Below, one piece after another: positions 1 to 14,231 of a stretch of DNA of 64,000 nucleotides. Every line of letters starts with the position of its first letter. Position 1 is the first letter of the stretch. The stretch is from assembly GCA_002269645.1 (NCBI GenBank), contig NIVC01001831.1:1-64000 (forward strand). Reading direction: 5' to 3'. The DNA is from Macrostomum lignano (taxonomy: Eukaryota). The translations under genes were made by a program, and so were the position numbers. The notes under the pieces were generated by a model, which saw only the letters and a list, made by a program, of their open reading frames with translations, searched no databases and was not told where the DNA came from.

Positions 1-262
1 ACATACTGACAAACTCTGAGTTTCTACGCTTTTTATATCTACCTGGAGAGCTAGAGAAGGACAGACTAAAAGAAGAGCTACAGATCCATACTTCAGCCTT
101 GATGTACATAAAATAGACAGACATTTTACCTCCGACTCTGGTGACTATTACTTTTTATCTCAAGCCTTTAACGCCTAAATCCGCCCACACGGTCATTCAC
201 TAGAGCTGAACTCCTAGTGATACCAGCTGACACAGAAATTAATTAAAATATTAAAATAAAAA

Positions 263-696
263 ATGACAAAGATTGAAACCAGAACCATCAATAAACTCAA
301 TAAAATCATTGAATCAAAGAAACCAGGTCTTATATCAATTAAAGGTATCAAAGTAAAATCGATCCCACCAGCAAATAGTTCAGTGTAATGAGCAAAGACA
401 CAGCATCACAGATGAAAAGTCAGGAGGAATCCTACCATTAGCAGCTCTTATTCCGATCATTGCAGGCGCTGTAAGTGCCGCAGGTGGTGTAGCTGGAGGT
501 GTAGCAACTGCTGTTAAAGCTGGGAATGATAGAGCCCACCAGCTTGAATTGCAAAAGATTGCAAGAGACAAAGGTATAACAATTAAGGCAGGAGAGGGCT
601 TGCCCCGATCGTGATGATTGTGAGCATGAAAATTCTGTAAGCAAGTCTGACATTGTCAAAGCCATCATGACATGCACAATGCTGGGTTTACAATAA
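263..696 (+). pseudogene. Adenovirus pX(mu)-like, membrane-active core protein gene, frameshifted (absent from the ORF track)
   Basis: ATG 263 (MTKIETRTINKL...). A shifted frame then reads EKSGG-ILPLAALIPIIAGAVSAAGGVAGGVATAVKAGNDRAHQLELQKIARDKGITIKAGEGL (414-602). A further shifted frame ends at TAA 694-696. Confidence 0.65.
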
Positions 697-830
697 TGCG
701 CATGTGATGAGGTTTAAAACCCCACTTTATCCAGCTTCATAAACCTAACGCTACTTATAGGATGTAGAAACAGTTCAACTTTTCTATCAGGGTGGTCACC
801 TCAAAATTTTTTTTTATTTTAGAGAAAAAA

Positions 831-3800
831 ATGCCAAAAGCTAATCCAGCAAAAGATTTAGTCAACAATATTTTTATTTTTCAAAAGGCGTCTCATTTCA
901 AGACAAAAGTAATTTACTAAGAGAAGCATGTAAACAAAAGTTTAACACAGACCCTGGTCACCTGGGAAGCTATGAAAAACAGTTGGAAATCATCAATCAA
1001 TTAGAATCCAACCAGTATGCGCCTATAAAAATCCTGCAAAGGAACACCAAGAGAGGAGTCGCAACTTAGTTAACAAATACGAAACTCTCACTGGTGAAAA
1101 AGCAAAGTACCCACAAAATAAGCAGGAACAAGAGAAATTAGAGCAATTAATCCATTTAAAAGAGTCGGAGCTTGCCATTGAAGAGATTAATTTTGCACAG
1201 AGGAAGTTTACAGAACATTACATAGAGTACACAATCCAATTAAGGATACCACCGCAAACATCTACGACTATAAAGACAGCATCCAATCAGTTGTTGATCA
1301 CACACTCAAAACACGCAAGACTTTTAAACTACAGATATCATTCAAGATTGCGTTTTATATGCCTGCAAAACCCACTGAGCATCTCGAGTATTACATGACA
1401 ACAAAGGCAAAGCCATTCACCCCTACAGACACACTGGATCCTTTCCTTCAAGATGTCACTAAGAAAATTGAAGCGTTTACATCCAGAGGTTCCGGATGGG
1501 TCGTGGGGGGATTCAAAGAGCGACTGTCATGGTCATGAAATATGACCCACTTAAAGCCTCCTCTTATATAGAGCTCCCCATAAGCTAGCCGGCAAAAAAG
1601 CTTGCATAAATGTTAAAAATAAAGACAATTGCTGTGCTCTATGGGCAGTTCTTTCTGCACTTTTTTAGTGTACCTCACCACCCGAAAGAACCTCAAATTA
1701 TCAAAATTATTTCAACTACTATCTCATCGAATGCGAAAAGAAGGGAATCAGGTTTGACAAAGGAGGCTTGGCGATCTCTCAGATCCCAAAGCTAGAAGAA
1801 GTGTTTAATAACAAAATTAGAATCACAGTCTTTGAGTGGAGTGAAAAAACTGAGAAAGTTCAACCGGTCAGATGTAGCAAAGACGTTTTAGATCCTGAGG
1901 GGAAAAGGCGGATTGAAGTGGATCTTCTAGTGATTGGTAATTTACTAGAGGAGGCTCACTATGTTTGGTTAAAGATCTTTCAAGACTCATTCACAAGCAG
2001 TTGAATAATCATCACGAGGCTGTTGCCATCTGCCGCTTGTGCCTTAAGCATTACAGTGGACCTGAACGCTTTGAAAAGCTAACAGAGAATGAATTATCAT
2101 GCGAGGATCACCCAACAAACTGCTCTCTTCCTTCAGCTGAAGAGAAGTATCTCCGGTTTAAGAACTATCACAAGATGGAGAAGCTCCCATTTGTTGTATA
2201 TGCTGATTTCGAATGCTCAATCATGCCAGAAACTCAAAAAAACTCAAACACAAAACAAACAAACAAAACAAACTCAAACAAACAAAAAACATGTCCCCAA
2301 TTCAGTAGCATATGCCTTTATTAATACAAAAGGACTTGTTGAGTATAATTATTTCTTTGGAGAGCAGTGTGTGGAGCAGTTTATTGCCAGAATGTTAGAG
2401 CTGCAAAAAGTGATTAGCACCCTTCAACCTGTTCCAATAATGATGACTGAGAGGATGAAAGCAATTTCCTATCAGCAACTCATTGCCACATCTGCAGGAA
2501 ACAGTTAACTTGCACTGATTTTAAAAACCCCACCGTTAGGGACCACTGCCACTTTACTGGGAAATTTAGAGGTGCAGCGCATAACACCTGTAATCTAAAG
2601 CTAAAATCGAACATTCATGATCTAACGATATTTTGTCACAACGCAAAGAACTATGACATGCATTTAATAGTTGAAAAAATCGGCATGATTCCAGACATAC
2701 ACCTTGACTGCATCGCAGAGAACAAGGAGAAGTTTAAGTGTGTTGATATTAAACAGGATAATTCGGGTACAGGTAAAATAAGACTGAAGGATTCATATCA
2801 ATTTCTAGCTGCCAGTCTAGACGAACTAAGCAAGAATCTAAAAGATGAACAATGTACATATACAAAGATGTTTGCAAGTAAAATTTACAACAGTGATGAA
2901 TCATTTAAACTCCTGAGAACCAAAGGCTTCTACCCCTATGAAAATATTACTGGGTATCACGTATTTGAAGAAGGTTTACCACCACAAGAAAAGTTCTTTT
3001 CAAAGCTAACAGACTCTGGAATCTCTGACAAAGACTATGAGCACGCGAAGCATGTCTATAATTACTTTAATTGTCAAAACTTCTTCCAGTATCACCTGCT
3101 TTACCTCTTCACAGATGTGTTTCTGCTGGCCGATGTGTTTGAAACCTTCAGAGACACCTGGTACACAGCATATGGCCTCGATCCAGCACATTATGTGTCT
3201 CTGCCTGCCACTAGCTGGGAATCTTTGCTTAAAATGAAATGGGATCAAGATCCAGATTGGTACATTGAACTTCTTACAGACATTGACATGTACAATTTTG
3301 TCGAATCGTCAAAGCGAGGGGGATCTCAATTTGCGTTAACAGGTATGCAAAAGCAAACAATCCCTACATTGAATCTTACAATAAGGAGCAGCCCTCAAAC
3401 TACATTACTTACTTGGACGCTAATAATCTCTACGGGTGGGCGATGAGTCAAGATCTTCCAGTTAGAGATTTTCGATGGCTACCCTCATCAGAACAAAGTG
3501 GGACTTTTCATTGGCTGCCATTTATGAGGTTGATGTTTACATTCCACCAGAGCTTCACGACTATTTCTCTGACTTTCCACCCTTCCCAGAGAACATCAAG
3601 TGCCCGAAAATAATCGAAACTCCCAATGATAATAATGGAACTTGGCACCTGTCAGGAACAGAAAAAGAACATACAGAGAAACTAACACAGAATCTAAACA
3701 ACAAGACACGTTACAAAATCCATTACAAACTGCTTCAGTATTTTATCTCACTTGGTTGCAGGGTCACCAAAGTTCACAGGGCTCTTACATTTACAGAGGA

Positions 3801-11922: not shown

Positions 11923-12165
11923 TTAACGCAATTGTCTAATGATTTCTGCAAAGTTATAGTAGCTGTCATAATCTTTTACATAGGTTACTCCATACTTATG
12001 AAACCAGTGTCTTTGGAGAGCTAGATTAATATTAGGGACATTGATATCAACGTCGGGCCAATATTTTCTCATGTACTCGCTGCATTCTAGTTTGCATCGG
12101 TACTTGGATTTGTACAATGGATGAGGCTGAGTATAATAGGAACCTGGAGAGACAACTGGAAACAT
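11923..12165 (-). CDS. 80-aa Tyr-rich subterminal Polinton ORF of unknown function
   Basis: Open frame with the same AATAAAAAATG start context as other element genes. Confidence 0.45.
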   Translation of the reverse strand: MFPVVSPGSYYTQPHPLYKSKYRCKLECSEYMRKYWPDVDINVPNINLALQRHWFHKYGVTYVKDYDSYYNFAEIIRQLR

Positions 12166-12366
12166 TTTTTATTGAGAATTTAATTTTTTCAAAGGGTAAG
12201 GACCCTGGGTTAGGGGATTTAAAGTTTTAGGGATGTGGTAGCACGTTGCAAATTGAATGTGGGGAGAAGAATACAGATTATTTTCTGATTGTTTCTGGGT
12301 GGATGTTAGTGGATTATGTCAGTGTCAGTGAGTATAACAGGTGTTAGTGGACACTTGTTATGCTCT

Positions 12367-12562
12367 GATTCTGTCAGGGATAATATGGATGGATTTAATA
12401 CGATTATGTTCGAAGTTTTCGGAGCAAGTGCGACCCCTCCCCTTTTTCATGATTCTGTCGGGGATAATATGGATGGATTTAATGGGATTATAGAGGAGGT
12501 TTTGTGAGCGAGTGCGACCCCCCTTTTTTTCTGATTCTGTCAGGGATAATATGGATGGATTT
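12367..12562. repeat. 3 x ~83-bp repeat in the putative right TIR
   Basis: GATTCTGTCRGGGATAATATGGATGGATTT at 12367, 12451 and 12533. Confidence 0.9.
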
Positions 12563-14231
12563 AGGTGGATTATGGAGGAGGTGAAAAATTTTGTCCCAGA
12601 AGCCCCCTCATGCCTTCTACTTTGTCGTACTGCATGTTTTTATTAGTTCAAATACAATACTCTATAGATCTATGAACTCCTTGGATAAATGTATAGTGGG
12701 ATGTTCACATGGCTGTCATGTCAAGAGCAATGATCGATAGCATAGAAATGTACTTTGCATATACAAAGCACACATGCACGGTATGCGAAATACATGTACA
12801 TGTACATGCAGCTACAGGAAATCTTGCATCTATGGTCGGCATCCTTTTTCACACCAAAATTAGTGTTTTGATTATCACACGCTCATTCGAGCGCCGCGCG
12901 TGCTAAGCCAACAAAAATTGACCCTAGCACATGTACATTAATTATACCGTACGCGTACATGTTCATGCAATCATGCATATATGTTGCATATATGTATACC
13001 ATCATCATGTGTACATGCAGGACAATTCTCAAAAAAATGATGAAATTGAAATTTGAACATGTTGCAGACCGAATAAAACTAAGTCTTGGACTAGGACCAT
13101 AGTGCTTGTATCTGCGACCTCTCGGTTTCTACCTACTACATGTATTTATGCTTCTTCACATGAGAGTGTACTATACATGTACCGCGCAAAATCGCAAGCC
13201 AAAGGGAATCTGACAAAAATAGATTTCCACTGAATGAAAACCCCGGTGCATATCGCCAGTAAAGTGATGTGTTTGGGAGTCGTTTTTAAATCGTTGGTTC
13301 GTTACTCGTATATTTGTTGAAATAAAGCAAGAGCTCGTCAATTGTTTCGCGCTTGTTCCTATCTATCTTGCCGCTCGTACGCAGTTTATCAATTGAGGGC
13401 CTGTAAGCCAAGCGTTTACCCATAAACTAATACGTGGCTGCTCGCAGCCACACATCATAAAGGCTACTAAAAAGCTAAAAAATTTTATCGGAGACTCTGG
13501 GTAAATGTTTGTTTAATACTGAATTAAAACCAACTAATATGTACGGATGTGCGCGAAGGTTCAGCCATGAAGCAAAGCTACAAATAATTCTTACTGCTTG
13601 GTCAGACACAGGAATAAATATCGAGCTTATTTAAAAATAAACAGGTGAATACCAATGCTGACAAGTTTCAAAAAATACGAAATTACTAAAGTTTATGTTA
13701 TACTGTCTTACAATGATTTTTAAATTCACCGAATTTTTTTATAATTTATCGATGAAAACATTTTTGAAAAGATCAGCGGATCTTTACAGTGATCGTGCGA
13801 GTTTGTTAGGTATTAAACTTGATCTAAAGTTTATTCAGTTTTATTAATTTCTTCTGCACTTTGCTAGTCGTCTTTTTGTAGACCTAGTCGAAGCAAGTAA
13901 ATAGTTTTCTGCCTTTAAACTTAACAAAAAACATTTGAGAAACAATTTGAAACTCGAGCCATCAGGGTTTATATTATTATATACTTTGAAGTGCATTTTG
14001 TCGCAGATTAAAAAACGATTTATTGATTTTAAGTCATAAAAACACTTTTTTAACTGTAAGTCCATTGATTGTTGCATAGCAGTCACCCAAAACAGGAAAT
14101 TATAAATTGACATTGGCATTAGGCATTTGGCACTAACTTGCTTGGTGCTAATTCTAAACTTCATTACAAGGCTAAAGCCAAGGAAGCATACCGTCCCATT
14201 TCTCTAACAACTAAATATCACAATAACTGCT

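Follow-up and report, generated by a model that had tools for sequence, protein, structure and literature searches.

A very recent insertion of a 16-kb adintovirus-type Polinton and its mosaic family in Macrostomum lignano

The first 12.6 kb of a 64,000-nucleotide stretch of Macrostomum lignano DNA (contig NIVC01001831.1, here C1831; the whole stretch is referred to as the window) carries polymerase, protease, ATPase and capsid-like genes of the Polinton type, and raises the question of whether this is a Polinton proper or an integrase-less element resembling the Polinton-like viruses (PLVs), and whether it belongs to a young lineage able to make virions. Bases 1–12621 turn out to be the right-hand part of a Polinton proper that measures 16,141 bp in all. 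The account we consider probable is that it is a very recent insertion of an integrase-bearing, adintovirus-type Polinton from a large young family. The family would likely replicate through a linear genome with protein-primed synthesis, and likely travels in icosahedral particles for at least part of its spread. This account draws on the observed structure, ends, target-site duplication, empty site and gene set, on capsid folds (as predicted models), on selection on the capsid genes, and on the mosaic make-up of the copies.

Extent, insertion site and gene content

The right terminus of the element is exactly at 12621 (…CTTCTACT), with host DNA beyond it. The contig, from a 764-Mb assembly, opens inside the element (window base 1 is contig base 1), and the left terminus, 3,520 bp upstream of that base, is on another contig, C1604, where it was located by searching the assembly for the target hexamer joined to the element terminus. 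The left half encodes an rve integrase (E 5e-10), a parvovirus-type phospholipase A2 (PLA2) and a RING-finger protein, and the integrase rules out an integrase-less PLV-like element. A sequence-only reading of the window had left this choice undecided and had asked for the left end and integrase to be retrieved; its remark that the integrase is not in the window is correct for most of the gene, but bases 1–246 are the 3′ end of it.

The terminal inverted repeats (TIRs) of this insertion are 1,156 bp long with one substitution between the two ends, and the 6-bp target-site duplication (TSD), TTGTCG, is found at window 12622–12627 and again ahead of the left terminus on C1604. An empty site is present in the same assembly at C291:685275, where the hexamer occurs once, there is no element, and the flanks are 97–99% identical. 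The insertion is very recent; its near-identical TIRs and empty site, together with the likeness among copies, bear out the earlier suggestion of a young lineage. We note that the left end is present twice in tandem on C1604, each with a matching left flank (C1604:1-26373; two left parts with ~340 nt of flank, 14.6 kb apart, with 8 substitutions and 16 gap openings in 10 kb), and this represents either a misassembly or a genuine tandem duplication.

The features of the window copy are as follows.

1–246, plus strand: 3′ end of the rve integrase gene, frameshifted in this copy; it matches the C-terminal part of the integrase found elsewhere in the family, which is 345 aa long when open (open frames in nine copies)
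263–707, plus strand: virion gene resembling adenovirus protein X (pX); broken here, 147–155 aa when open (Adeno_PX, E 4.6e-7, on another copy)
831–4747 (end approximate), plus strand: protein-primed DNA polymerase (PolB), ~1,290 aa, PF03175; in pieces
4774–5175, plus strand: adenain-like maturation protease; last part frameshifted, 116 of 133 aa left
5178–5902, minus strand: conserved open reading frame (ORF) with a hydrophobic central segment; split here, ~223–235 aa when open, no family name
5930–6726, minus strand: coiled-coil-like ORF whose C-terminus differs among copies; broken near its start here
6743–7543, minus strand: A32/FtsK-type packaging ATPase, open, 266 aa (Pox_A32, E 3.3e-6; Walker A GSSGSGKT; ratio of non-synonymous to synonymous variation, pN/pS, 0.09)
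7588–7691, no strand: tandem repeat of a 21-bp unit, five copies
7735–8112, minus strand: small ORF with three GxG motifs, a putative core protein; no match in Pfam or PHROGs
8129–9327, minus strand: Q/P-rich ORF of ~400 aa; split here, with two diverged alleles across the family
9358–10644, plus strand: predicted double-jelly-roll (DJR) major capsid protein (MCP), open, 428 aa (PF21738, E 6e-5; fold searches; pN/pS about 0.1)
10668–11531, plus strand: predicted penton (minor capsid protein of single-jelly-roll type), 287 aa, open; its model (pLDDT 76) matches the mavirus penton at E 2.6e-9
11466–12621, no strand: right TIR, 1,156 bp, taking in the last 66 bp of the penton gene; 99.8–99.9% identical to the left end on C1604
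11755–11913, no strand: palindromic repeat array of a 33-bp unit, 4.8 copies; only some family members have the array
11923–12165, minus strand: 80-aa ORF within the TIR, with two main alleles and no family name
about 11929–12621, no strand: usual TIR extent in the family
12364–12582, no strand: sub-terminal repeat of an 84-bp unit, varying in copy number
12622–12627, plus strand: TSD TTGTCG, also before the left terminus and single at the empty site

The MCP, penton and ATPase reading frames, described as intact from the sequence alone, are indeed open. The same reading listed entry proteins; the PLA2 entry gene is situated outside the window, in the left half. The PolB and protease ORFs that it listed are both present, PolB being spread over at least eight frames and the protease frameshifted, which it did not state. 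Judged against other copies, pX and three of the minus-strand ORFs are likewise interrupted. The PolB match to PF03175 is above the cut-off but weak (58.9 bits), and the polymerase motifs are in order in the long natural frames. For the protease, an open copy matches Peptidase_C5 above the cut-off (E 1.3e-4) and adenain in the PDB (E 0.0025). The 80-aa TIR ORF is Tyr/Lys-rich and present at both ends, has a pN/pS of 0.27 over 20 stop-free ends of 31, and has no match in a Pfam search.

Residues ~546–598 of a long natural PolB frame have a weak, below cut-off match (E 2e-4) to an insert of endonuclease-VII/HNH type, and such an insert is annotated also in many database relatives. In nearly all of the element genes the ATG directly follows an A run closing a ~25-nt A/T-rich stretch, and four also have a T-tract plus AG. 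A trans-splice acceptor before every gene was considered and dropped as a general rule, the T-tract plus AG being common at only four of 12 well-sampled starts.

Family, capsid genes and broken frames

Searching the assembly with the MCP DNA gives 347 candidate loci, with all 40 of those scored 97–100% identical; the PolB protein query gives 1,054 candidates (121 scored, and other families may be included) and the terminus query 619. None of these figures is a copy number, as only part of the candidates were scored and loci are duplicated in the assembly. Two sets were compared: one ranked by MCP, with the middles of 35 of 39 other copies and both ends of 10, and one ranked by PolB, with both halves of 30 copies (10 window-like, 10 with long PolB frames, and 10 others). 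Mean pairwise substitution is 1.4–2.0% in PolB and MCP. Among 17 other copies with both ends, the TSD is an exact 6 bp in 10, has one mismatch in one, and is different in six.

Several departures from the simple form are present. Copies adjoin in tandem, nested or inverted arrangements (L072/L073, L074/L075, L009/L010 and L085), several having internal deletions or insertions, and a 1,126-nt deletion fusing MCP to penton (window 9683–10810), seen in short-read contigs of three sequencing runs, is a recurrent deletion derivative. Contigs from five sequencing runs, taken as possible RNA, were rejected as evidence of expression; they span coding and non-coding DNA alike and bridge the head-to-head promoter junction. 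One copy has a tRNA-like sequence in its variable end region (L003:6109-6179; Rfam RF00005, 36 bits), possibly a short interspersed element (SINE) insertion. There is no group I intron (RF00028) in 15 left-end loci or the window, and no avoidance of GGNCC (20 observed, 20.4 expected).

The ORF at 9358–10644 models as a double-jelly-roll capsid protein and that at 10668–11531 as a penton. The MCP has nine database relatives at 44–78% identity, its Pfam DJR-like match (PF21738) is sub-threshold, and a sequence search of the PDB gives no match; an IMG/VR scan with the MCP alignment gave 58 pattern matches with none confirmed. By predicted structure, all of the rows listed by Foldseek are DJR capsids (best Sputnik MCP, E 7e-10), as are the top ten from VIA (best Faustovirus MCP, Z 10.6, rmsd 7.0, 303 aligned). 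The penton model (AlphaFold pLDDT 76.2) matches the mavirus, Sputnik, PBCV-1 and adenovirus pentons, with E 2.6e-9 for mavirus and Z of 11–12.7; the VIA comparison gives Z 12.4, rmsd 8.3 with 238 aligned, and a PBCV-1 chain Z 12.7, rmsd 2.8 with 129 aligned. Jelly-roll folds for the two plus-strand ORFs and intact structural genes in genomic copies were the points on which the sequence-only reading had staked its case, and both hold: the predicted models match jelly-roll capsid proteins in Foldseek and VIA alike, and MCP and penton are open in many copies.

In particular, MCP is open in 30–31 of 35 MCP-ranked copies, a set biased towards open MCP, and in nine of 20 PolB-ranked copies. Penton is open in nine of 19 and protease in 30 of 56, and there are 34 ATPase frames of 266 aa, for which the automated 'open' rule undercounts owing to allele-specific ends. 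Taking open frames only, and pairs that are not independent, pN/pS is 0.12 for MCP (n = 40), 0.23 for penton (10), 0.29 for protease (30), 0.09 for ATPase (13), 0.23 for PLA2 (23), 0.31 for pX (22) and 0.16 for integrase (9). The MCP value is 0.10 in 30 pairs less than 1% apart and 0.09 in 233 pairs 1–2% apart; the same comparison gives 0.04–0.2 for ATPase, 0.2–0.3 for protease and 0.23 for penton. MCP pN/pS is ~0.1 even in pairs less than 1% apart, so the gene stayed under constraint while the family was recently spreading. For vertebrate Mavericks, the account in PMC8097293 takes purifying selection on the virion genes as a sign of reinfection by particles, and it is from selection that we infer virion competence for this family.

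Another possibility is that the family is now a germ-line transposon only, with capsid genes carried along and the low pN/pS coming from older viral alleles reshuffled by gene conversion. ATPase and MCP do hold old alleles up to 20–25% apart, MCP singleton variants are less constrained than shared ones (synonymous/non-synonymous 28/38 versus 210/108), and virions have not been observed for vertebrate Mavericks, as far as the account in PMC8097293 goes. However, MCP pN/pS stays at 0.10 between copies less than 1% apart, and the capsid genes in PolB-ranked copies are broken no more than PolB (1.15 and 0.41 versus 1.9 per kb); we consider it unlikely.

Other observations weigh against a family that is active and spreads in particles. 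The AlphaFold model of the MCP is weak (pLDDT 53.6, and a TM no higher than 0.37 in Foldseek's first row), pN/pS comes from open frames and from pairs that are not independent, and duplicates in the assembly swell the copy counts, this insertion alone appearing three times. PolB is open from start to end in none of 48 wholly present copies, and is broken in the window copy as well; the longest PolB frames, of 1,255–1,295 aa in three of 121 matches, are without the first codons, and among 14 elements with all eight core genes there is none with all of them open. About three PolB breaks are shared by the three assemblies of this insertion, some of the breaks are also present in as many as nine other copies (in a set chosen for likeness to the window), and enrichment of indels in homopolymers is seen in only one of three PolB segments.

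It is worth asking whether the frameshifts are real. In that case most copies, the window's included, would be either dead or non-autonomous, with rare helpers mobilising them in trans, or the burst would have ended. The lack of any fully open PolB and the breaks common to sister copies and to the three assemblies suggest this, and vertebrate genomes with hundreds of PolB-defective copies are described in the available account of PMC8097293. But the three assemblies of the one insertion show 18 (window), 4 and 11 frameshifting indels in PolB, the window count being 12–18 depending on the alignment (12–13 by another); three of the window's 18 recur in the second assembly and six in the third. 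Moreover, private frameshifts do not rise with private substitutions (r −0.29 and −0.12), with up to five private frameshifts alongside 0–1 private substitutions, and deletions account for almost every one-base indel (73 of 91, 35 of 36, and 33 of 35). We regard real decay as possible but doubtful. Because the three assemblies agree on only ~3 of 4–18 breaks, most of the frameshifts in the window copy are probably assembly or consensus errors, and frameshifts in long-read assemblies of 16-kb repeats are not readable as decay. The window also differs from the short-read contigs of four sequencing runs, at 12 indel places listed and 35 more. An intron or programmed break at the PolB start is not needed, since 14 of 21 frames continue beyond 50 codons after the start codon and none of the breaks is found in every copy.

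Exchange among copies and the neighbouring host DNA

The ends of the copies have a characteristic pattern. In six of 11 copies with matching TSDs, only 0–2 bases separate the two ends over the outer 400–1,100 nt, beyond which the ends cease to match or change to another allele; three others are close over 200–500 nt and two differ throughout. The pattern is in none of six TSD-mismatched pairs. (Ends were compared by pairwise profiles, multiple alignment being distorted by the 84-bp repeat.) In this insertion and one sister copy the TIR extends into the penton gene, and two other loci have 540 nt of penton at the left end; a penton fragment appears to have been copied into the left end here and in those two loci. 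Adenoviruses repair their inverted terminal repeats (ITRs) through a panhandle, in which one end is copied onto the other and copying can reach into unique sequence, and we infer from the end comparisons that the patterns here are what such panhandle copying would leave. Internal segments are also mosaic, with ATPase alleles ~20% apart in DNA within backbones otherwise 98% identical, and similarly diverged alleles of the ~400-aa Q/P-rich ORF and of parts of MCP.

The most variable segment is between the left terminus and PLA2. In 29 left ends it is 0.86–3.4 kb long and falls into mutually unalignable types, many of which encode a protein of 200–330 aa; the slot of other copies, including this insertion, has the RING gene or nothing. 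Nine slot alleles are 9–47% identical (median ~16%), whereas the PolB DNA of the same copies is on average 1.54% apart, and copies with the same slot allele are 0.24–0.77% apart in PolB DNA. Judged from these sequence comparisons, this one accessory slot is exchanged far faster than the backbone changes. A profile of ten slot proteins has 221 relatives in a 50%-identity library, and a hidden Markov model (HMM) built from 144 of 150 listed matches (five close to the queries and one very long protein were dropped) finds 17 frames in the loci at E <1e-11 among 7,589 frames, a check only partly independent since the training matches came from the slot profile itself. Pfam, PHROGs, PDB and Atlas give no usable name; DUF3102 matches one of 61 members (E 0.012), and one allele has a below cut-off match to HTH_Tnp_Tc3_2_like (E 8e-4).

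Different slot types adjoin different palindromic arrays, with units of 33, 47, 60, 70/140 or 119 bp. Three-unit heat-shock elements are present at 15 of 58 termini examined, with none in the 11.5-kb core and one in 51 kb of flanking DNA; the terminus in the window has the 33-bp array, and heat-shock elements are absent from it. Between penton and TIR, the right ends of L113 and L020 have a 60-bp repeat, in up to 23.6 copies, with a heat-shock-element-like word per unit.

The mosaic make-up of the copies, their unmatched ends and their high number could instead be artefacts of assembly, through chimeras across 16-kb repeats and duplicated haplotigs, and the unmatched TSDs in six of 17 pairs, the assembly of this insertion three times (twice in tandem) and the frequent ending of contigs inside the element are what this would predict. 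Base errors cannot, however, give alleles 10–25% apart or slot proteins as divergent as those seen, the same slot allele is found in separate loci with the closest PolB genes, the public protein library has close matches to several slot alleles, and allele switches occur also in TSD-matched copies. An explanation by artefact is thus quite improbable.

On the account of a spreading adintovirus-type Polinton, and drawing on known Polinton and adenovirus biology, the element would excise, and the protein-primed PolB (pPolB) would copy the linear genome from its termini. Paired ends could form a panhandle, with one end copied onto the other. The ATPase would then load the genome into a shell of MCP and penton, with adenain as the maturation protease; pX and PLA2 would help membrane passage, and the integrase would re-insert the element with a 6-bp duplication. 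Recombination between co-occurring variants would give swapped alleles and a variable end cassette. A more speculative and tentative extension is that this is a circulating animal Polinton virus with specificity groups akin to phage immunity groups, in which a swappable end cassette, with nine or more alleles of a putative DNA-binding protein each paired with its own palindromic array and often a heat-shock promoter, would act as a private stress switch or superinfection barrier for each sub-lineage, panhandle copying shifting cassettes between ends.

The host DNA beside the element has GC-rich, intron-split genes. One such gene (window 25608–32994) encodes a NACHT/AAA domain (E 3e-13) as well as a long run of Gln, and a DXD glycosyltransferase exon (38735–39262) is within a duplicated region (37168–46708) whose second copy is ~7 kb downstream and 94–99% identical. 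There is also an 85-bp satellite, which has an inverted partner, at 33864–35263, and at 20898–21264 a ~370-bp near-perfect inverted repeat resembling a miniature inverted-repeat transposable element (MITE).

Comparison with known Polintons

The element has an rve integrase, a protein-primed PolB, long TIRs with AG…CT ends and a 6-bp TSD, an ATPase and a cysteine protease, the features by which Polintons are recognised. It and its family are a further Polinton/Maverick of adintovirus type, and the architecture is already known. We found no account of this family, of TIR homogenisation or of heat-shock elements in Polintons in a literature search that covered sources other than subscription journals and supplements; names for the slot family or the unnamed ORFs may already exist among the supplementary protein sets of PMC8502044.

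The element resembles the Alpha (Mayetiola-class) adintoviruses, which, by the account in PMC8502044, share a pfam03175 PolB, rve integrase, adenain, FtsK/A32 ATPase, DJR hexon, penton, PLA2, pX, ITRs and an animal host. The likeness is one of gene content, and the MCP is isolated, with few relatives. In the Alpha adintoviruses as described there, PLA2 and pX are fused (PLA2X), whereas here they are separate genes on opposite strands flanking the integrase. Polinton polymerases have a TP-vOTU-polymerase organisation (TP, terminal protein) in the account of PMC11071308; a profile search of PolB gave no match to an OTU family.

Intact vertebrate Mavericks average 16,862 bp with TIRs of 46–1,447 bp and a 6-bp TSD (PMC8097293, as far as that account goes), and the element here, at ~16 kb, has a TIR within that range; accessory regions flank the core in both. 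Gene order differs, and PLA2 and pX are present here. The end motif is AGTAGA, whereas that of the vertebrate elements is given as (AGT)2 or (AG)3, and copy number is above the vertebrate average of 22. Selection is measured differently, with pN/pS of about 0.1 here within one genome's recent burst and a branch omega of 0.001 or lower in vertebrate Mavericks (PMC8097293). No fusogen was noticed in the element, no search having been aimed at fusogens.

Nematode Polintons (PMC10748475) and polisuviruses (10.64898/2026.10.13.758929), in the portions of those accounts drawn on here, exchange modules or alleles between co-resident elements, as here, and an endonuclease-type insert in some pPolBs is likewise shared. 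In this family PolB is uniform (~1.5%), and the exchanged parts are the ATPase, MCP segments, TIR interiors and, above all, the one accessory slot. Compared with adenovirus panhandle ITR repair, what the integrated copies preserve here is a fossil pattern whose breakpoints vary, and the mechanism would be the same only by analogy. The copies record the workings of the element, with ends homogenised from the tip inward and an accessory slot swapped quickly. Whether animal Polintons make particles is a long-standing question, and this family is a good natural place to look, because it has hundreds of candidate loci, an empty site in the same assembly, and capsid constraint in copies less than 1% apart.

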